A DNA stretch of 11,731 nt from a virus (Duplodnaviria > Heunggongvirae > Uroviricota > Caudoviricetes): the IMG/VR virus record IMGVR_UViG_2690316156_000010; one strand, 5' to 3'. The stretch's first letter is position 1. Each line of letters opens with the position of its first letter. Below, piece after piece: positions 1 to 10,150 of the stretch. The notes under the pieces are model-generated. The model ran no database searches and was not told the DNA's origin. It saw nothing but the letters and a program-made list of their open reading frames with translations. The translations under genes were made by a program, and so were the position numbers.

Positions 1-486
1 ATGGGTGGCGCGGTAAACCAGACTACGATCAATAATGGAGTGCTACAGGTTTATGGCGCGGCGACTGATCCCACGATTAAAGGAGGGCGCGGTGATGCGG
101 CATTTACGTTGGGCAATGCCGGAAGCGTTGTTGATATCAGTACGTATGAATATACCTTGCTGGATAATGGCAACCATAGCTGGAGTCTCGCAGAGAATCG
201 CGTACAAATGCCCCCTTCAACCACGGATGTGCTGAATATGGCGGCAGCACAACCGCTGGTATTTGATGCAGAACTGGACACCGTGCGTGGGCGTCTTGGT
301 AGCGTAAAAGGCGTTAATTACGATACGGCGATGTGGAGTTCGGTAATTAACAGCCGCAACAACGTGAACACTGATGCGGGAGCTGGCTTTGAGCAAACAT
401 TGACGGGCCTGACGCTCGGTATCGACAGCCGTTTCTCCCGTGAAGAAAGCAGCACAACTCAGGCGGGTGTGGTCTGGACGTTCTGA
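1..486 (+). pseudogene. Autotransporter (AIDA-I/Ag43-type) C-terminal remnant; ORF enters from beyond the window start and appears internally deleted
   Basis: Translation shows the passenger/linker-to-barrel junction (…AAAQPLVFDAELDTVRGRLGSV…MWSSVINSRNN…GLTLGIDSRF) then jumps to a barrel-end-like …VVWTF and stops, with the ~250 aa beta-barrel body missing. The Met at position 1 is probably internal. Confidence 0.4.
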
Positions 487-1649: not shown

Positions 1650-1716
1650 GTCGGGTCCTTCCTGGAATTATGGCCCGTTACGGGGCGGCGACCTCGCGGT
1701 TTTTCGCTATTTATGA
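1650..1716 (+). other. Lambda-type cos site, copy 1 (cosQ-like + cosN + truncated cosB)
   Basis: Reads CGGGTCCTTCCTGG…CCCGTTACG|GGGCGGCGACCT|CGCGGTTTTTCGCTATTTATGA. The 12-nt cohesive-end sequence GGGCGGCGACCT is at 1683-1694 and the flanks match the lambda cos junction as I recall it. No R-type repeats follow. Confidence 0.7.
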
Positions 1717-2052
1717 GATTTTTTGAGGGGGTGGTTGTTGTTTAATTGTTTGGTATATCTAATTGATAAGTAAGGTAAAAATAAAATAAATACAACAACC
1801 TTACGATGTATTTTGATGTCATTAATGTGAAAAAATTCAATGATATCAAATGGTTTTGTAAAAACACATGGTTGTTGTATCGCGTATTTGATGGCGTAAC
1901 AGAAAGTGATTTTTAACTTTACCGCTCTGTAACTACGGATTATTCCATGCTGGCACGGAGAACGGCTACGGCATGACGCCACCCAGCCTATACAGAACAG
2001 TAAAGCCGATAAATTGTTAATCACGCGCAGCAATGCGTGTGATTTTTGCACA

Positions 2053-2250
2053 CTTCCGGTTAACGGGTACGATGTCCGGTTTTAGTGTCTGTTTTTTGCG
2101 CATGTCCGGTTCATAGAAAGCATGTTTTTATATTTTTCATATGGTTAACTTGCAGAGAAACCGGACATGGATCCCGGAAAATTTTCATAAATAGTGAAAA
2201 CGCGCGAGGTCGCCGCCCCGTAACGGGTCCATATGCCGGAAAGGACCCGT
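2053..2250 (-). other. Lambda-type cos site, copy 2 (cosQ-like + cosN + full cosB-like region), inverted relative to copy 1
   Basis: Reverse complement of 2171-2260 reads ACGGGTCCTTTCCGGCATATGGACCCGTTACG|GGGCGGCGACCT|CGCGCGTTTTCACTATTTATGAAAATTTTCCGG. cosN is at 2207-2218 (AGGTCGCCGCCC on plus). Three copies of ATGTCCGGTT follow at 2159-2168 (inverted), 2102-2111 and 2072-2081, with an AT-rich stretch between the first two, as in an R3-I1-R2-R1 cosB. Confidence 0.8.
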
Positions 2251-2280: not shown

Positions 2281-2694
2281 TCAGATGGTTTTCAGTATGT
2301 GATCGATGTCGCCGTCATCGCCCTGGTTTCTGCCATCGTATGCCATGCCAGCTGATACGGCTTGCGGGCTGTGCATGTCCATAAAGTTTTCAAAGGCTGC
2401 GGTAAGCTCTGGTGCAACCTTTGGGCGCTCCTGCTCTATGGTCATGTTCAGGATTTCACGAGCATTATCGACGCTAATACATGGCACGTTTGCCATTGCA
2501 CGTAACAGCGGCTGATAGTCGTTATGTTCATGAAGCGCCATAATCGCATCAGCGCGCGGCTTGTCCTGTTCTTCCAGTTTGTTGAGTTGATATACGGCCT
2601 CGTAGGTTGATAACCCTCTGTCAGCCATTGCCCGCGCTTCGGCTTTAAATTTACTCGCCAGCGGTAGCGCCATGATGCTTTCATTCGTTGCCAT
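2281..2694 (-). CDS. Hypothetical protein, 137 aa, last gene of the capsid operon (positionally like lambda gpFI; unverified)
   Basis: ATG at 2694-2692 with SD AGGGGGAA about 4 nt upstream, 12 nt after the gpD-like stop; acidic C-terminus. No motif-level similarity to lambda FI that I can confirm. Confidence 0.55.
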   Translation of the reverse strand: MATNESIMALPLASKFKAEARAMADRGLSTYEAVYQLNKLEEQDKPRADAIMALHEHNDYQPLLRAMANVPCISVDNAREILNMTIEQERPKVAPELTAAFENFMDMHSPQAVSAGMAYDGRNQGDDGDIDHILKTI

Positions 2695-2706
2695 CGTTCC
2701 CCCTGC

Positions 2707-3042
2707 TTATCGGGCCAGCGGCTGAACGGATACGCCAGAACCCGCAAAGGCGGCGCATTTTTTCGCATCGGTGTCGACGCTCTCAGGCCAGTTAACGGCG
2801 GCGATATTGAATATCCCCGTCTTATAGCACTGTGCTGATTTCTGCGTCGACGTGTCAACGGGGTACGAGGTCAGATAAACAGCCTTGCCAGATTCCTGAC
2901 CATCCCACGGCTTAAACTCGCCATTGTCCGCCAGCATCAGCGGGGTAAATTCCTGAATAACGCCAGCATCAGCGGCAAAATGTACCAGCGTCGTTGATAC
3001 CTGCTGACTGCCTGCAAATAACTCAATGTATGGAGTGTTCAT
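2707..3042 (-). CDS. Head decoration protein, lambda gpD-like (111 aa)
   Basis: Motifs TPLMLAD, KPWDG, WPE, KK.AAFAG align with lambda gpD as recalled; size matches (lambda gpD is 110 aa). I place the start at ATG 3042-3040 with SD GGTGGA; the track's start at 3051 is a GTG inside that SD. Confidence 0.75.
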   Translation of the reverse strand: MNTPYIELFAGSQQVSTTLVHFAADAGVIQEFTPLMLADNGEFKPWDGQESGKAVYLTSYPVDTSTQKSAQCYKTGIFNIAAVNWPESVDTDAKKCAAFAGSGVSVQPLAR

Positions 3043-3053
3043 AGAATCCACCG

Positions 3054-4109
3054 TTAACCAATTTTGACGGTAACAAATTTGCGAATATCTGCCGGAACAG
3101 GCTGCGGTGCGCTGTGTGTCTGCACGTACTCAATCGCCGGATCGCCGTCTTCAATCCAGTTTTTCGGGTAAAACATGTTTTGCGTTGCGCCCGTTCTTAC
3201 CGCTTCCTGTTCCATAATCGCACCATAGGCCACCAGCCCTTTATTGTTGGTGTTGCCCAGGACCAGCAAATCAGGCTCAAGGAAATATTTTTCTGTGCCG
3301 TCGCTGTCAGTGTATTTGCCGGAATAGACGATAAGGGCCAGATCACCAAGATAGCCTTTAAAGCTCACCACTTCTCCCAGGTTTTTACATGCCAGCTCTG
3401 CGGCGGATTCTGAACCACGGGAGAGATCGTACAGTTCACGGAATTTTTTAAAGCTGCGTAACATGCGCCATACATCAACGCCCATAATCATGACGTTTGC
3501 GGGGCAACCTGCCTGATCTGCGTATAGCTCAATGTCATAGATTGGGTCGTGTATGTCTTTGTCCTGCTCTGACCATTTTTTACCGTCGGCCTGCTCTATG
3601 ATGTTTTTTTCCGGTATCTTCCAGTCGATTTCATAGCGCTCTATGCCTTCGCCCTCAATGATGTTTTTTCCGGTCGTTACCGCATTTACCGCCAGCCATT
3701 CCACGCGCGCTTTAATGGCGTTTATCTGGCGGCGCATGTTGCCAGTAATCAGGCGCATACGGCGGTAGGTAGGGTCGTTAAGCTGTGCTGGATCTTCTCC
3801 AGCCATGCGCATTATTGTTTTTAATGGATCGATTTCGTGTTTTGGCTTCATGTAGCCAGGGCGAATAATGCTTGTTTCGTACCCTTTATCGCGCTGAACC
3901 TGGCTACCCACCATAGGCGAACAAAACGCCGACATAGTGACTTCTTCAATATCCAGGTTATCTAACATGATGTCCTGTGTGTTGAATGTCGCCACGTTCG
4001 GGAAAAACAGCGCGGTAAACAGCGGACTGAATTTAAATTCCGCAATATCCTCGCGATTCAGGTACGCAAAAAGCTGGTTAGTGTTAAGTGATATTGCTTT
4101 TACTGTCAT
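3054..4109 (-). CDS. Major capsid protein, lambda gpE family (351 aa)
   Basis: Shared blocks with lambda gpE from memory: FKFSPLFTALFFP vs FKFDPLFLRLFFR; PGYMKPKHEIDP vs PGYVKPKHEVNP; EDPAQLNDPTYRRMRLI vs DEDPQNLADPAYRRRRII; YPKNWIEDGDPAIEYVQTHSAP vs YPKNWVTTGDPAREFTMIQSAP. ATG at 4109-4107 with SD GGGGGTGA; length close to lambda gpE (341 aa). Confidence 0.9.
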   Translation of the reverse strand: MTVKAISLNTNQLFAYLNREDIAEFKFSPLFTALFFPNVATFNTQDIMLDNLDIEEVTMSAFCSPMVGSQVQRDKGYETSIIRPGYMKPKHEIDPLKTIMRMAGEDPAQLNDPTYRRMRLITGNMRRQINAIKARVEWLAVNAVTTGKNIIEGEGIERYEIDWKIPEKNIIEQADGKKWSEQDKDIHDPIYDIELYADQAGCPANVMIMGVDVWRMLRSFKKFRELYDLSRGSESAAELACKNLGEVVSFKGYLGDLALIVYSGKYTDSDGTEKYFLEPDLLVLGNTNNKGLVAYGAIMEQEAVRTGATQNMFYPKNWIEDGDPAIEYVQTHSAPQPVPADIRKFVTVKIG

Positions 4110-4315
4110 TATTCACCCCCGTGAACCTGATTCATACCCAGCGCCGCGCGTAAATAGGCGCGTACCTGCCAGCCTGTTGACGGCTCAACCATCGCCAGCG
4201 GATCAAGTCCTGCCGCAATGCCTGCTTTTACGTTCTGCTGGTGGCGTTCCTTGAGCGCCTTCACGATGTCGGGGCTTATGTACACCGAAACACCGCCTTT
4301 TTTCTCTTCAGCCAT
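4109..4315 (-). CDS. Hypothetical protein, 68 aa, first gene of the capsid operon
   Basis: ATG at 4315-4313 with SD AGAGGAA about 9 nt upstream; its TAA overlaps the capsid ATG (TAATG), indicating translational coupling. No recognisable family. Confidence 0.5.
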   Translation of the reverse strand: MAEEKKGGVSVYISPDIVKALKERHQQNVKAGIAAGLDPLAMVEPSTGWQVRAYLRAALGMNQVHGGE

Positions 4316-4350: not shown

Positions 4351-4399
4351 CTGGATGTTCATCCAGATCTGATTATAATCATGATTGCATTTTATGCAA
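4351..4399 (-). promoter_or_regulatory. Sigma70-like promoter of the capsid operon with palindromic operator candidates
   Basis: On the minus strand TTGCAT (plus 4394-4399), 16-nt spacer, TATAAT (plus 4372-4377). The -35 lies inside the palindrome TTGCATTTTATGCAA (4385-4399); the predicted start region overlaps the palindrome CTGGATGTTCATCCAG (4351-4366). Confidence 0.5.
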
Positions 4400-4480
4400 T
4401 GATGTTGAGTTGTGTTGCAAATTATGAAATGATGATCCCGATCATGTGTGTCAGTGCGCCAAAAAAAACCTCATATGCAA

Positions 4481-4521
4481 AAGCCCGATAAGATGCCTCC
4501 TGTACTTATCGGGCTTTTTTT
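4481..4521. terminator. Long hairpin flanked by A and T runs (bidirectional terminator candidate)
   Basis: AAGCCCGATAAG (4481-4492), 12-nt loop, CTTATCGGGCTT (4505-4516); T7 downstream and A8 upstream on the plus strand. Confidence 0.5.
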
Positions 4522-4526
4522 GGGTA

Positions 4527-4550
4527 CAAAAAAGCCGGATTACTCCGGCT
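4527..4550 (-). terminator. Rho-independent terminator of the replication/accessory operon
   Basis: AGCCGGA (4533-4539), loop TTAC, TCCGGCT (4544-4550); A-run on plus gives a U6 tail on the minus transcript, 6 nt after the stop at 4556. Confidence 0.6.
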
Positions 4551-4555
4551 GTTGA

Positions 4556-4828
4556 TTAGCTGCCTGGGTAATTACGCCATATTTCATCGCTTACACCATC
4601 TATACCCATTTCAGCATAAGTGCGATCGACTGCCTTTCTCAGGTCTCCGAAGTTATCCGGCGGCTCCGGTGGCCTCTGTGCCTTCCTGGAACATTCCAGC
4701 CGTCGCATCGTAACCTGATGCCGTTCCTTGTCTGTCTCCACCAGCTGCATGACTTCACCCCATCGTGCCGCCGCCCTCCGGTAAAAGCCTTTTGCCTCGA
4801 GTTCCTCCGCTATGCGGTCATGTACCAT
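4556..4828 (-). CDS. Small regulator, possibly PerC/Pch family (90 aa; track shows a longer 130-aa form from 4948 that overlaps ssb)
   Basis: ATG at 4828-4826 sits 11 nt after the ssb stop with SD GAGGGGGTGAGG. AEELEAKGFYRRAAARWGEVMQL resembles the PerC/Pch signature as I remember it (…LE..G.WRRAA.RW…); the family call is tentative. Confidence 0.45.
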   Translation of the reverse strand: MVHDRIAEELEAKGFYRRAAARWGEVMQLVETDKERHQVTMRRLECSRKAQRPPEPPDNFGDLRKAVDRTYAEMGIDGVSDEIWRNYPGS

Positions 4829-5810: not shown

Positions 5811-7559
5811 TTATAAAAACGCGTCACAATCATCAGTTGTAATTGCGTTGGTCTGCGTTACTCCCTTAACTCTCCGCGTAATATATTCATGTCCGTAAAC
5901 TTTTGCCGCTGGCTTCATGGCCTTGCTGAACTCAGCCACGTTTAGCGGTTTGCTCCTGCCTGCGTATGCCATAAACGCCAGATAGACGCGGTAAAGGCTG
6001 TTTCTGGTCGTGTACTTCACGGAATCGCCACCGCCACCCATCATCAGGCCGCGCGCTTCCTCCAGAAAATTCAGGAACTGGCAAAACTCAATAACCGGAT
6101 CCGTCTGTTGCTTTATCGCCAGTGCTTCATCACCGTCGCGCTGTTCCAGTAATAAAGCCCGTGCCTTTTCAGGGTCGGCAAAATTAGCCAGCAAGCGACG
6201 GATAATTACGGGGATTTCAGCCGCGACCTTCTCCGGCAAATCCTTGTCTTTTTCGTCCTCCCTTACAATGTTGTCGAACCGGAAAATCACCCGACGGCGT
6301 GACACACCTCCGGCCCGCTCGGTGAATATCATCGGGTTATTGTTGGTAGCCAGCACCACCGCCCTGATTACCGCCGTGAAACGCTTTTCATATTTCGGGT
6401 TAATTTCCACGGGGTCGCCGCCTGTGATTTTCTTGATGCCCGTTCCTTCGCCTGTATATTTCGGCTGGTCAGCCAGGACGATAAGACGACTCCCGACAAC
6501 CTGCGCACGTCCACCAGCATCATCAAGCGATGTCATTTCAGCGCTTACCGTGTTCTGTTTCCCTGCCAGAAGGCTGGCTATGTGTGTGAATGTACTTTTA
6601 CCGCTACCGCCCTCTCCGGTGGCCTCAATAAACATCTGCCAGTCGTACCGGTTCGCCATAATCATGTACAGCGCGGCACATATACGCATCATCTTGCGCG
6701 AGTCTTTTCCGGCTGCGTGCTCAAGCCATTTATGAAAGTTTGGCGCGTTATCGCGGATGTTCTCCCCTGGTGCTGGTGGCGTGTACTCAATGCCGTTGTT
6801 CGTGGTGATCCAGTTCTCCGGCGTGTGCGGGGAAAATTCCCCCGTTTTCAGGTCAAGCGCACCATTGGCGAACGGCAGCAAATCGCCGGACGGCTCGCCC
6901 ATTGGTTCGGCAATAACTTTTAACGCTTCCACGGCGTTATTGATTACGCGCTTGCTGAAAGTGGCCCTGTGCTCTGAATAGATCGCCACCATTTCGCGGC
7001 TAAGTTCCATTGTGCTGACCGGACACCATACCCCGCCGCGCCATACGTGAACGATTTCACTTTCCGGATGCACACAAACGCCATCAAATCGACCAGCAAG
7101 CATCTGTGCGCGCTCACTGTCTGCCATTTGTGCCAGTTGCGTATTTTTCTGCTCCGGCATGGTAAGCCCTGCGGCAATATTTTCACGCTCAGCATTCAGA
7201 TAGCGCCGCCAGTTTTCACACTTCTGGACGTGCATTCCTTCGGGGTAAAAATTTGCGTCCTGAATATCTGCCGCCGCCAGCTTCTGACCAATCTTTTTGG
7301 TCTCCACCAAATCCAGTTCTCCGGCCTGGTACAGCCTTACGCGTTTTTTTCCATCAGGAACAATTTGCAGTGCATCAAGTTCGGCAAGCTGATTTGGCCC
7401 AAGCCACACAGGAGGCACATTATCGCCGGATGCGGGGCCGTCCTGCTCCTGCCACTGTTTTGCATGTGCCCACGCATCACTACCCGCGAAAATAATCACC
7501 TCTGTGTCTTTGTGTTTTATTCCGCGTGGCTGTTTTTTTACGTTCGGTGCCAGTTTCAT
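5811..7559 (-). CDS. Replication initiator: primase / D5-type helicase fusion (P4 alpha-like, 582 aa)
   Basis: Walker A P-loop GEGGSGKST mid-protein with a downstream LIVLAD hydrophobic-acidic stretch (Walker B-like); size and position (after small early ORFs, before ori) match satellite pri/rep genes. ATG at 7559-7557 overlaps the upstream stop. Confidence 0.85.
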   Translation of the reverse strand: MKLAPNVKKQPRGIKHKDTEVIIFAGSDAWAHAKQWQEQDGPASGDNVPPVWLGPNQLAELDALQIVPDGKKRVRLYQAGELDLVETKKIGQKLAAADIQDANFYPEGMHVQKCENWRRYLNAERENIAAGLTMPEQKNTQLAQMADSERAQMLAGRFDGVCVHPESEIVHVWRGGVWCPVSTMELSREMVAIYSEHRATFSKRVINNAVEALKVIAEPMGEPSGDLLPFANGALDLKTGEFSPHTPENWITTNNGIEYTPPAPGENIRDNAPNFHKWLEHAAGKDSRKMMRICAALYMIMANRYDWQMFIEATGEGGSGKSTFTHIASLLAGKQNTVSAEMTSLDDAGGRAQVVGSRLIVLADQPKYTGEGTGIKKITGGDPVEINPKYEKRFTAVIRAVVLATNNNPMIFTERAGGVSRRRVIFRFDNIVREDEKDKDLPEKVAAEIPVIIRRLLANFADPEKARALLLEQRDGDEALAIKQQTDPVIEFCQFLNFLEEARGLMMGGGGDSVKYTTRNSLYRVYLAFMAYAGRSKPLNVAEFSKAMKPAAKVYGHEYITRRVKGVTQTNAITTDDCDAFL

Positions 7560-7855
7560 TTTTTACCCCTGAATACGTTAAGCATCTTTTTTATTTCCTG
7601 AATATTGGCGCGTGCTTTCTCCCTGCTGGTTGGAACGTTACGCGGTACAGCCTGCACCAGAGAAAAATCACGGTCGAACTGATAAACAGGCATCACGCAA
7701 TCATATTCGTAGCCTTCACGACGGTAGGTTACGCGCCGTTCCTCCACGCCCTTAATCATTACCGTGCCGCCGTACTGGTCGCGGTAAATATCACCGCGCA
7801 TGAATTTAGTGCGAGTTTTGCCACTGGCAGTTAAGCCAGAATATTTAAGTTTCAT
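7556..7855 (-). CDS. Hypothetical protein, 99 aa, immediately upstream of and coupled to the primase gene
   Basis: ATG at 7855-7853 with GGAG upstream; TGA overlaps the primase ATG. No family recognised. Confidence 0.5.
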   Translation of the reverse strand: MKLKYSGLTASGKTRTKFMRGDIYRDQYGGTVMIKGVEERRVTYRREGYEYDCVMPVYQFDRDFSLVQAVPRNVPTSREKARANIQEIKKMLNVFRGKK

Positions 7856-8088: not shown

Positions 8089-8545
8089 GACTCCCCCCCT
8101 GGCGAATACGGGCGACAAAAATAAGATGTGCGTGCGGCAGCTGTGCACGTGCTTCGCGCTCAGTGGCAGCGGTAACGGTGAATATTGCAATACTGTCTGT
8201 CAGGCACTGCATAAAGCGCCAGACAAAATAAGGGCGTGCGGATACAGCCATGTGAAAGGCTCCCAGATGAATTTTAAGGAGTCTCGCTACTACGCTGTCA
8301 AACATGGTGGCGAGACGTAACAGGGTTGACAGACTGGTCATCTGGAAACCAGCGAGCACAAAGGCTCCCCCGTTACGCCCCGCCATAATGCGGGTATGGG
8401 TAGGTTTACGGACACAAAAAAACCGCTTATCGGATGTGGGCGGCTGTCCGCCAGATGTATTCAGGCTGTCAAACCCGGTCGCCATGTGGGCGACGGGGGA
8501 AGCATACAGCCCCGTGATAATTTTTTGCAAGCGGTTTTTACGCAT
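8081..8545 (-). CDS. Repeat-unit ORF B (154 aa from ATG 8545) ending in an Icd-like small domain; an internal SD+ATG at 8251 could give an independent 56-aa product
   Basis: C-terminal 56 aa MAVSARPYFVWRF…TEREARAQLPHAHLIFVARIRQGGSHA is paralogous to two other copies; GGGAG lies 8 nt before the internal ATG at 8251. The ATG at 8545 overlaps the stop of ORF A. Icd-like assignment is from memory of similarly annotated small proteins in P4/PICI elements. Confidence 0.45.
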   Translation of the reverse strand: MRKNRLQKIITGLYASPVAHMATGFDSLNTSGGQPPTSDKRFFCVRKPTHTRIMAGRNGGAFVLAGFQMTSLSTLLRLATMFDSVVARLLKIHLGAFHMAVSARPYFVWRFMQCLTDSIAIFTVTAATEREARAQLPHAHLIFVARIRQGGSHA

Positions 8546-9095
8546 GATGTGACCCCTGACGAATACGAGCGGCAAATACAGCAACACAACCTGACGGGCA
8601 ACGGCTACGCGCTTCGCGTTCTGTCCAGGCGGTTACGTGGATGATTTGAGATTCTGACGCGCCAAAGATGATAAAGCGCCAGATAAATGCGGTTTGAGAA
8701 TGTACAAGGGTAGGGATAGTAGCCATGTTGGCAGCCTCCTCAGTGTGGTTAAGATAACCGCCACGCAAAAGGCTAATTTCGCTGGTGGCGGACTGTACAG
8801 GGTTAGCCTTACCGGACACTGAAGAAACCGGCGCGGATTGCTCCGCCCCCGTACAGCCCACCATTGATAAGGTGTGACTATGCGGCACAAAAAAACACGC
8901 GGGGCGCGTGCTGTGCGCTTCAGTTGTTTTCAGGAGGCTAATCCCGACACCCGTTTTATGAGGTGCGCGGGAATCATAGCCATTTTTGCTGGTGGCGATC
9001 AAGCGGTTTTTTTCTCCGGCACTCAGTGCCAGAAAACGCCACACAAAGGCCGTTTGTGTGTGTACAAGGTGTGGTATATGATTTACGGCAACCAT
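8538..9095 (-). CDS. Repeat-unit ORF A (185 aa from ATG 9095) carrying two Icd-like repeats; an internal SD+ATG at 8726 could give an independent 62-aa product
   Basis: N-terminal copy MVAVNHIPHLVHTQTAFVWRF (SD GGAG before 9095) and C-terminal copy MATIPTLVHSQTAFIWRF…TEREARSRC…FAARIRQGSHHA (SD GAGGAGG before 8726). Between the copies, differences are mostly synonymous in this frame (CAT/CAC, ACC/ACG, GCA/GCC, CGC/CGT) and non-synonymous in the plus frame, which supports minus-strand coding. Confidence 0.45.
   Translation of the reverse strand: MVAVNHIPHLVHTQTAFVWRFLALSAGEKNRLIATSKNGYDSRAPHKTGVGISLLKTTEAHSTRPACFFVPHSHTLSMVGCTGAEQSAPVSSVSGKANPVQSATSEISLLRGGYLNHTEEAANMATIPTLVHSQTAFIWRFIIFGASESQIIHVTAWTEREARSRCPSGCVAVFAARIRQGSHHA
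8889..8910 (-). terminator. Intrinsic-terminator-like hairpin plus U7 inside ORF A (possible attenuator)
   Basis: On the minus transcript CACGCG-CCC-CGCGUG followed by UUUUUUU (plus 8896-8910 with A7 at 8889-8895), about 190 nt after the ORF A start; the U-run encodes the conserved CFFV residues. Confidence 0.35.
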
Positions 9096-9224: not shown

Positions 9225-9404
9225 GTGTCAACACACAAAAACGAAAGGCGTGGTAATCCTCCGTTCCAGTTCCGTTTAGATCCTGACTTACGGGAAAAGA
9301 TGGAAAAGGCACAACAACAGGACGGCGATGATTCTCTTGCTGCCTGGATAAAGCGAATAATCCGCAAAGAATTACAGCAACGCGGCATAGAACCCAAAGG
9401 ATAA
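9225..9404 (+). CDS. Arc/Mnt-type ribbon-helix-helix DNA-binding protein (59 aa, GTG start; not in the ORF track)
   Basis: GTG at 9225 with SD GAGGTG 8 nt upstream and an in-frame stop just before it; translation VSTHKNERRGNPPFQFRLDPDLREKMEKAQQQDGDDSLAAWIKRIIRKELQQRGIEPKG shows the beta-strand (FQFRL) then two helices typical of Arc/CopG-type repressors. The plus strand is purine-rich here, consistent with sense orientation. Confidence 0.6.
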   Translation: MSTHKNERRGNPPFQFRLDPDLREKMEKAQQQDGDDSLAAWIKRIIRKELQQRGIEPKG

Positions 9405-9786: not shown

Positions 9787-9993
9787 TTAAGCAGCCGTTC
9801 CGCGTGCTTCCTCTTCGCGTTCTTTCTGCCAGGACAACACATCATCCTCATACCATCCGCGACGGCGTAAACCAACGCGAAAACCCTGCGGAAATTCTCC
9901 GGCGTTGATCATGCTTTGCAGCGTGCTGTCTGCCTTGATGTGGATAATTTTTTTTACTTCCTGGCGAAAGATAATTTTTCTGATTGCTTCCAT
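9787..9993 (-). CDS. alpA: AlpA-family (MerR-like HTH) transcriptional regulator, 68 aa
   Basis: …IRKIIFRQEV…STLQSMINAGEFPQGFRVGLRRRGWYEDDVLSWQ matches the AlpA pattern (…FP.p.klg.R.v.W.e.ev..W…) and the position just downstream of int is typical for PICI-type islands. ATG at 9993-9991. Confidence 0.7.
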   Translation of the reverse strand: MEAIRKIIFRQEVKKIIHIKADSTLQSMINAGEFPQGFRVGLRRRGWYEDDVLSWQKEREEEARGTAA

Positions 9994-10123: not shown

Positions 10124-10150
10124 TATAAAAAAAGCGGCATTTCTGCCGCT
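10124..10150 (-). terminator. Rho-independent terminator after the int-proximal small ORF
   Basis: AGCGGCA (10133-10139), loop TTTC, TGCCGCT (10144-10150); A-run on plus gives a U7 tail on the minus transcript. Confidence 0.55.

Follow-up and report, generated by a model that had tools for sequence, protein, structure and literature searches.

The 11,731-nt stretch of DNA analyzed here (IMG/VR virus record IMGVR_UViG_2690316156_000010; hereafter the window) contains a phage satellite that encodes, within positions 2281-4315, a four-gene module whose products are a 68-amino-acid (aa) protein, a lambda gpE-like major capsid protein, a lambda gpD-like decoration protein and a 137-aa protein. It is near-certain that the element is a classical Gram-negative phage-inducible chromosomal island (PICI) of the EcCICFT073/OI-51 (CP-933C, Sp7) family, and that the module is its late, or capsid-morphogenesis, zone. 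A capsid/decoration module in a satellite is already known, and the present island adds a further member to a family that is already well characterized. Our additions are incremental: the assignment of the 137-aa protein as a small relative of the lambda scaffold Nu3, selection data for all four genes, and a conserved operator-promoter region. We tentatively read the four products as a matched shell-building set that is used conditionally, with some helpers.

A shell module without other head genes

The two shell proteins can be assigned with little difficulty. The 351-aa product matches Pfam PF03864 (Phage_cap_E) with an E-value of 3.9e-49 over 314 of the 329 profile positions (167.9 bits, cut-off 22.9) and the major head protein family of PHROGs at 5e-107. 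In the PDB it matches 3BQW, a "putative capsid protein of prophage" from CFT073 (6.7e-229), and the lambda gpE structure 7VI9 (3.9e-81). It is 43% identical to lambda gpE over 328 aa, 94.9% identical to the copy in the CFT073 island and 45.5% identical to the gpE of the CFT073 helper. The 111-aa product, which would extend to 114 aa from an alternative GTG start at 3051, matches Pfam PF02924 (HDPD) with an E-value of 3.7e-18 (66.2 bits, cut-off 29.1) and phrog_49 (5.9e-28), with 37% identity to lambda gpD over 76 aa and 96.4% to the CFT073 copy. The profile searches in Pfam and PHROGs thus bear out the gpE and gpD family assignments that a model had made in an earlier note on this DNA (hereafter the original prediction). 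The N-terminal arms of both proteins fail to align with their lambda counterparts. Part of the gpE-gpD contact in lambda heads is made by the N-terminal arms of the two proteins, and the unaligned arms fit a capsid/decoration pair that has co-evolved.

The original prediction also held that the island has no scaffold, and this is contradicted by the 137-aa product of the last gene. This protein matches phrog_53 (head maturation protease) over profile positions 494-567 of 583 only (E 7e-10), and BLASTP aligns it with residues 416-493 of the 501 residues of CFT073 helper gpC at 37% identity over 83 aa (E 1e-9). It contains two copies of a repeat of about 40 residues (IMAL..EA.G.E..A..LA..PGMTV..AR.ILAA) and a conserved tail (FE.FM..HSP.AV...D.D). 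The same repeat is present in three copies in CFT073 helper gpC and in one copy in lambda gpC, inside the region that is also translated as Nu3. The S49 protease domain carried by gpC is absent from the 137-aa protein. Its AlphaFold2 (AF2) model is all-helical with a predicted local distance difference test score (pLDDT) of 67, and a fold search with this model was uninformative. As a direct BLASTP comparison of the protein with lambda Nu3 was not significant, the link to Nu3 is transitive and runs via CFT073 helper gpC and phrog_53. Judged from these alignments, the protein is a stand-alone, scaffold-like "mini-Nu3", homologous to the C-terminal part of gpC/Nu3. Natural 93-aa variants lack exactly 44 residues, equal to one repeat unit, and in other islands divergent versions of 115 aa and 134 aa (40-43% identity) take its place (variants examined: P0027, P0029 and P0031). 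The fourth gene is the most variable of the module.

Two other identities for the 137-aa open reading frame (ORF) were rejected. Its similar size and adjacent position would fit Rpp, but there is no RppC match in the PDB at E <= 10 and CFT073 carries a distinct rppA of 144 aa in addition to the 137-aa gene. The NCBI label "phage head-tail connector protein" finds no support in NCBIfam or Pfam profiles.

The 68-aa product of the first gene belongs to phrog_3255 (8e-37), a family of unassigned function, and has no Pfam or NCBIfam match. Since only 14 matches were found among 1.84 billion representatives, the family is satellite-specific, an orphan family restricted to EcCICFT073-type and related satellites. 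In E. coli, Salmonella and Pluralibacter islands its gene always lies immediately upstream of the capsid gene. The AF2 model (pLDDT 73) consists of a short strand and two helices and found no match in fold searches.

All four genes are under purifying selection. In a sample of 9-11 diverged islands, in which all four ORFs are intact, the median pairwise ratio of nonsynonymous to synonymous substitution rates (dN/dS) is 0.11 for the capsid gene, 0.13 for the decoration gene and 0.24 for both the 68-aa and the 137-aa genes. Selection of this kind means that the module does something, which leaves room for the mechanisms of the original prediction with helpers beyond lambda, phi80 and the native one. 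Of 5,426 complete E. coli genomes, 598 (about 1 in 9, O157:H7 and uropathogenic strains included) have the module, and 590 of these 598 carry at least 80% of it. A scan of one-genome-per-species contigs with the capsid protein returned no relatives, and island diversity was sampled instead via homologues of the 68-aa and 137-aa proteins. The order 68-aa gene, overlapping capsid gene, decoration gene and small ORF recurs in islands of E. coli, Salmonella and Pluralibacter, and the islands sharing it carry three different replication proteins (D5_N primase, DUF927 and RepA/AAA_25 helicase). The closest capsid match in 50,697 phage records reaches 47.6% identity, and the 137-aa protein matches a single record, about 0.5 kb upstream of that record's gpE-like match. 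The distance to the best phage match marks the module as an old, satellite-specific lineage. Together with the reversal of gene order relative to lambda and the unaligned N-terminal arms, it speaks for a matched set and against a recent capture.

The element that carries the module is a phage satellite and not a decayed prophage, given its attachment (att) repeats, its P4-type integrase and primase, its two cosN sites and the core genes that flank it on either side. With the flank annotation taken from the exact-match genome NZ_CP145707.1 (E. coli S1-CAM-02-A), the island sits between a yejO autotransporter pseudogene and tRNA-Pro/yejM, the flanking core genes being nap/ccm/narP/yejO on one side and tRNA-Pro/yejM on the other. 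Imperfect 37-nt direct repeats 11,139 bp apart delimit an element of 11.14 kb; one is at window positions ~655-691 and the other lies ~60-100 bp beyond the window end, beside the tRNA. No portal, protease or terminase gene is annotated within the island, as the original prediction had maintained, or within 15 kb on either flank, and neither the annotation nor Pfam and PHROGs profiles reveal tail, lysis, portal or large-terminase genes in the island. A degraded complete prophage with its remaining head genes just outside the window, which would have undone that prediction, is ruled out: the 15-kb flanks are core genes and the att repeats bound the island.

Operon layout and control region

The module consists of four co-directional minus-strand ORFs (Table 1), with the stop codon of the 68-aa gene overlapping the start of the capsid gene (TAATG). 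The gene order of capsid followed by decoration is reversed with respect to lambda (C/Nu3, D, E), in agreement with the original prediction, which had also given the operon a promoter and a terminator of its own. These stand as a conserved candidate promoter and terminator-like hairpins on both sides of the module. The hairpin that follows the perC-like gene is conserved in related islands and would insulate the module from upstream transcription. A second hairpin, read from the sequence directly after it, is conserved in the aligned E. coli islands and is a putative terminator as well.

The candidate sigma-70 promoter was missed by a consensus scan, its -35 element fitting the consensus at 3 of 6 positions, and was recognized from the sequence together with the alignment. 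Its -10 region (G.TTA.AATCA) is invariant across genera. Two dyads accompany it: in 11 aligned islands of E. coli, Salmonella and Pluralibacter the columns ATTTCAT..TG.AA of the imperfect upstream dyad (site 1) are invariant, as are the columns TTGC..AA.TGCAA of the perfect dyad (site 2), which is a candidate operator. The exact form of the latter, TTGCA-N5-TGCAA, is found in 11 of the 16 loci examined, a single time per island, and is absent from the lambda and CFT073 helper-prophage loci; the CFT073 island and the Salmonella island have versions with one mismatch. Across the three genera the positions of the promoter and dyads are almost invariant, and the surrounding sequence is variable. 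No similarity was seen between the module promoter and the helper region downstream of Q. The leader between promoter and ribosome-binding site folds with -18.5 kcal/mol (z = -2.6). Its hairpin, which has a T-run and may serve as attenuator or operator, has arms that are kept in the E. coli and Salmonella islands and not in the islands L009 and L016. Altogether, these features point to an independent, insulated and separately controlled transcription unit with a putatively active promoter. The PerC-family activator encoded directly upstream is unlikely to be an obligatory regulator of this promoter, because some islands (L015, L016 and L009) keep the promoter and have no PerC gene.

A 26-nt terminator module (GCCGGAGAAATCCGGC followed by a T-run) is present in three minus-strand copies that are 73-100% identical, after the capsid module (2249-2274), after perC (4524-4549) and after an 83-aa ORF just downstream of int (10124-10149). 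The copies split the island into separate transcription units.

Table 1. Features of the module, its control region and the rest of the island (positions in the window).
Feature	Position	Strand	Remarks
68-aa protein	4109-4315	minus	first operon gene
351-aa major capsid protein	3054-4109	minus	lambda gpE family; orthologue of EcCICFT073 c1499
111-aa head decoration (cement) protein	2707-3042	minus	lambda gpD family; orthologue of c1500; ATG start
137-aa protein	2281-2694	minus	last operon gene
Terminator-like hairpin with T-run	4533-4550	minus	7-bp stem, 5 GC pairs, TTTTTG tail; after perC-like gene
Second hairpin, GCCCGATAAG...CTTATCGGGC then TTTT	4479-4514	minus	directly after first terminator; putative terminator
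Site 1, imperfect dyad TTTCATAATTTGCAA	4415-4429	minus	upstream of site 2, 30 bp centre-to-centre
Site 2, perfect dyad TTGCATAAAATGCAA	4385-4399	minus	over -35 hexamer and spacer; candidate operator
Candidate sigma-70 promoter, TTGCAT-16 nt-TATAAT	4372-4399	minus	read from sequence and alignment
Leader hairpin, CTGGATGAACATCCAG then TTATGATTTTTT	4351-4366	minus	terminator-like; between promoter and ribosome-binding site
Terminator-like hairpin with T8	2256-2277	minus	9-bp stem, 5 GC pairs; four bases past 137-aa stop codon
cosN, GGGCGGCGACCT	2207-2218	minus	co-oriented with genes; exact lambda match; just downstream of module
Second cosN	1683-1694	plus	
93-aa ORF	1337-1618	minus	phrog_1561 (2e-57), function-unassigned family; directly after second cos site
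PerC-family transcriptional activator	4556-4828	minus	Pfam 2.5e-44; directly upstream of module
99-aa DUF4222 protein	7556-7855	minus	RGD motif at residues 20-22
C4 antisense RNAs (two)	8303-8390, 8781-8868	minus	inside Icd-like/Ash-like ORFs
a1b1 target	8458-8507	minus	inside Icd-like/Ash-like ORFs
isrK RNA	8890-8966	minus	inside Icd-like/Ash-like ORFs

Possible roles and the published tests

The best-studied relative of the island is EcCICFT073, which occupies 27931-39000 of the CFT073 chromosome locus L003. In addition to the capsid and decoration identities given above, the 68-aa protein is 98.5% and the 137-aa protein 92.0% identical between the two islands, and SSB is identical. Fillol-Salom et al. 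(2018; PMC6092414) named the capsid and head decoration genes of EcCICFT073 c1499 and c1500. In that work deletion of either gene left transfer by the native helper unchanged, a c1499::cat island was transferred at 10^5-10^6 per ml and up to 10^6 with phi80, interference with lambda was not relieved by deletion of c1499 or c1500, and all DNA packaged by lambda with EcCICFT073 present was phage-sized. When the post-ori genes were cloned singly in pBAD18, only c1503 (rppA) blocked lambda, and deletion of rppA fully restored lambda plaques (Fillol-Salom et al., 2019; PMC6739421). Helper-driven induction, replication and high-frequency transfer have been shown for EcCICFT073 (PMC6092414) and in part for Sp7 (PMC2669165), and Sp7 DNA is packaged in O157 Sakai.

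The genes themselves have been noticed repeatedly. The EcCICFT073 capsid homologue and full-size packaging are mentioned in Dokland's review, and the O157 versions OI-51/CP-933C/Sp7 were described earlier still. A capsid gene is found in 21 of the 29 reference Gram-negative PICIs (bioRxiv 10.1101/2022.07.18.500453, the helper-embedded PICI preprint), the "late zone" of PICIs is defined in the published version of that work (PMC10111431), and "capsid morphogenesis" is one of the five core PICI components in SatelliteFinder (PMC10085698). Shell genes without other head genes, from which the original prediction had derived a possible and unusual hijacking strategy, are therefore a published and common property of Gram-negative PICIs. 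Nor do the mechanisms it proposed agree with the results on the 92-98% identical orthologous module with lambda, phi80 and the native CFT073 helper, where shell supply, a change of capsid size and poisoning of the helper capsid each meet a negative result among those just described. In the post-2019 literature searched, no demonstrated function for PICI gpE-like genes was found. It is known that helper-embedded PICIs interrupt helper gene E and carry their own E (bioRxiv 10.1101/2022.07.18.500453; PMC10111431). Among the islands related to the present one, a Salmonella island sits inside a terminase gene, with a truncated fragment of terminase gene A preceding it (L007, 157-1284), and an island in E. 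coli CFIAFB20180511 adjoins P2-type baseplate genes (gpV, gpW and baseplate assembly; L016, 1-1157). Both are helper-embedded configurations and suggest helpers beyond the classical lambda-type siphoviruses.

The reading that we prefer, with no more than modest confidence, is that the four products form a matched shell-building set used conditionally with some helpers. The scaffold-like 137-aa protein would nucleate the island capsid protein on the helper portal, the helper would provide the protease, terminase, head-completion proteins and tail, and the island cement protein would stabilize the expanded, DNA-filled shell. With lambda, with phi80 and with the native CFT073 helper such a set appears dispensable, as the heads of these phages would be sufficient by themselves; it would matter when the shell genes of the helper are defective, interrupted or repressed, with helper types other than those tried, or when the operator-controlled promoter receives a switching signal. 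The cement protein gpD binds only expanded, DNA-containing lambda heads, and the Nu3-type C-terminus is the part of gpC/Nu3 that is carried into procapsids. The selection on the module, its cognate cement protein and its scaffold homologue argue that shells are really assembled and speak against a decoy or relic, and DNA-filled shells are favored because neither a cement nor a scaffold-like protein is needed for a mere decoy. Independent control is supported by the terminators on both sides and by the near-invariant, position-specific promoter with its two dyads. Precedents are provided by the helper-embedded PICIs that bring their own E and by the packaging of Sp7 DNA in O157 Sakai. Because the module is selected, ancient and satellite-specific, with a scaffold homologue and a conserved control region, the lack of a knockout phenotype with three helpers may mean that the helpers were the wrong ones or that the operon was silent, and not that a function is absent.

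Several points weigh against this. Knockouts of c1499 and c1500, in an orthologue that is 95% identical, were without effect under the conditions used, and with lambda the packaged DNA was of phage size (PMC6092414). The island capsid protein is just 43-48% identical to that of the helper, whose portal and protease would be needed. No role can be assigned to the 68-aa protein, and with conditional expression the reading makes an assumption by which the negative results are conveniently accounted for.

It is also conceivable, though we consider it doubtful, that the element is a "shell-only" capsid-forming satellite, intermediate between classical PICIs and capsid-forming PICIs (cf-PICIs). A signal from particular helpers or from stress would activate its dyad-controlled promoter, and the satellite would build a gpE/gpD shell of its own on a stolen portal, with the mini-scaffold and with the 68-aa protein as a partner. 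Particles made in this way, which may be smaller, would combine satellite shell proteins with the portal, terminase and tail of the helper, and such a satellite would account for the null results with lambda, phi80 and phage-4.

Size redirection of the Ccm type seems unlikely. Here the island capsid protein would co-assemble with helper gpE, for example at the pentamers, and would enforce small shells with room for one or two island genomes of 11 kb and none for the genome of the helper. There are precedents, as the Ccm of SaPIbov5, a satellite capsid homologue, fills the pentamers of T=4 procapsids (PMC8569155) and the Pasteurella PICI PmCI172 encodes a capsid homologue and produces small heads, and the purifying selection on the module is compatible with such a role. 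This explanation is at odds with the phage-sized DNA packaged by lambda in the presence of EcCICFT073 and with a c1499 deletion that changed neither interference nor transfer; moreover, a penton specialist has no obvious need for its own cement and scaffold-like proteins.

We regard as improbable that the module serves interference or exclusion, with the capsid protein and/or the scaffold mimic poisoning head assembly of the helper or of rival lambdoid phages, for example by a protease-less Nu3 mimic displacing gpC/Nu3. It is true that the 137-aa protein copies the C-terminal part of gpC only, without the protease domain, and that assembly-stage interference is common among satellites in the literature. 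Nevertheless, of the post-ori genes expressed singly from pBAD18 only rppA cut lambda plaques, and its deletion restored plating (PMC6739421), while deletion of c1499 or c1500 gave no relief. In addition, there are no PADLOC defence model matches, and a decoy role leaves the conserved cognate cement protein unexplained.

Finally, a functionless evolutionary leftover of late genes captured from a helper, as PICI late zones are known to capture helper late-gene clusters (PMC10111431) and as the knockouts without phenotype might suggest, is very hard to reconcile with dN/dS values of 0.11-0.24, ORFs intact in every island sampled, no phage copy above 48% identity, 590 of 598 genomes with at least 80% of the module, and a conserved order, overlapping first two genes and near-invariant promoter across three genera.

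The wider island and related systems

The two exact lambda cosN sequences of the island are inverted relative to each other. The site just downstream of the module is followed by three CCGGACAT repeats resembling cosB sites, and its region is 95.6% identical to the lambda left end over 45 nt; by this resemblance, cosN and the cosB-like repeats represent the predicted packaging site of the island. Beyond it, rppA is cut down to a ~70-nt 3' remnant (~1917-1988), with ~190 nt of AT-rich sequence in its place. There is no TerS-like ORF in the island, and neither the 137-aa nor the 93-aa ORF has an RppC match in the PDB; the island therefore lacks the combination of cos with Rpp/TerS by which classical PICIs redirect the packaging of their helper, rppA being the redirecting gene. 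Sister islands have rppA or a 180-aa TerS-like gene at the rppA position, and the Rpp/TerS feature is common in the PICI family and not universal. The rpp-less version is found in 14 of the 5,426 complete genomes, whose isolates came from humans, yak and chicken.

The inter-cos segment (window 1652-2249, between inverted cosN-containing repeats) is inverted with respect to EcCICFT073. Strain EC21Z-144 has an intact rppA that is inverted relative to the module, and two further genomes have the rpp-less segment on the opposite strand. Since opposite orientations are seen in these three genomes, the segment flips in nature, either because the repeats recombine or, conceivably, because terminase cuts at both cos sites. 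The 93-aa terminal ORF is kept at the end of every E. coli island of the EcCICFT073 type examined and is 83.7% identical to the CFT073 copy.

Nearly all genes of the island lie on one strand, the exception being a 180-nt gene on the plus strand (window 9225-9404). The 413-aa integrase is of the P4 type and has Arm-DNA-bind_3, Phage_int_M and Phage_integrase domains. A 68-aa helix-turn-helix ORF at 9787-9993 has a weak Phage_AlpA match (E 0.0028, 17.9 bits, cut-off 21 bits), and its position and size fit an alpA-type regulator. The 582-aa primase matches D5_N, DUF5906 and Pox_D5 in Pfam and the DNA primase family phrog_864 (5e-168), with SSB adjacent. The 99-aa DUF4222 protein corresponds to RgdR (ECs1581/C1493), described as the OI-51 regulator of type III secretion of the locus of enterocyte effacement (LEE) and of motility in enterohemorrhagic E. 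coli (EHEC) (PMC3378721), and this correspondence ties the island to the OI-51/CP-933C/Sp7 family. The C4, isrK and a1b1 elements between 8303 and 8966 form a duplicated P4-type RNA immunity region; Icd-like ORFs are found alongside the Ash gene, which is annotated as a pseudogene. Window positions 1-486 (plus strand) fall within the 3' end of yejO, an autotransporter gene that the annotation of the matching genome gives as a pseudogene because of an internal stop.

Of the known systems, EcCICFT073 is closest. It has the same gene order and neighbors (DUF4222/RgdR, D5_N primase, SSB, and PerC upstream; cos sites and the 93-aa ORF downstream), a similar size of ~11 kb and a P4-type integrase. 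It differs in being inserted next to phoQ, whereas the present island is at the tRNA-Pro/yejM side, and in keeping rppA, of which the present island has only the remnant, with the inter-cos segment inverted. Lambda shares a homologous capsid protein (43%) and decoration protein (37%) and the Nu3 C-terminal repeat and tail. The island order is E, D and Nu3-like in contrast to Nu3, D and E in lambda, and the island has no protease domain, portal, W, FI/FII or terminase, while an extra 68-aa gene overlaps the capsid start.

The cos-type Staphylococcus aureus satellite SaPIbov5 likewise encodes an HK97-fold capsid homologue, Ccm, in an island without portal and terminase. For Ccm, however, pentamer occupancy leading to small T=4 capsids has been demonstrated, whereas for the E. 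coli orthologue packaging is phage-sized and the knockout has no phenotype; Ccm is also from an unrelated protein family, and SaPIbov5 has no cognate cement protein. The cf-PICI EcCIEDL933 has the same PICI backbone (int, alpA, pri-rep; in the present island the alpA-type gene is a candidate) and satellite capsid proteins in clades apart from their phage homologues. It differs in carrying a full set of HK97-type capsid, protease, portal, head-tail connectors, HNH, TerS and TerL; by Pfam, PHROGs and annotation, no member of this set was detected in the present island. P4 resembles it as an enterobacterial satellite of ~11 kb with a P4-type integrase, an alpha-like primase, C4/isrK RNAs, a cos site, shared Ash/Icd-like genes and a capsid decoration function of its own (Psu in P4). 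No homologues of Sid, Delta or Psu are among the island ORFs in Pfam and PHROG families. P4 uses the P2 capsid protein and encodes none; the helpers of the present island would be lambdoid siphoviruses. If it is true, the shell-building reading would place islands of the EcCICFT073 type as a bridge between satellites that remodel the capsid of their helper and those that build a complete capsid of their own.

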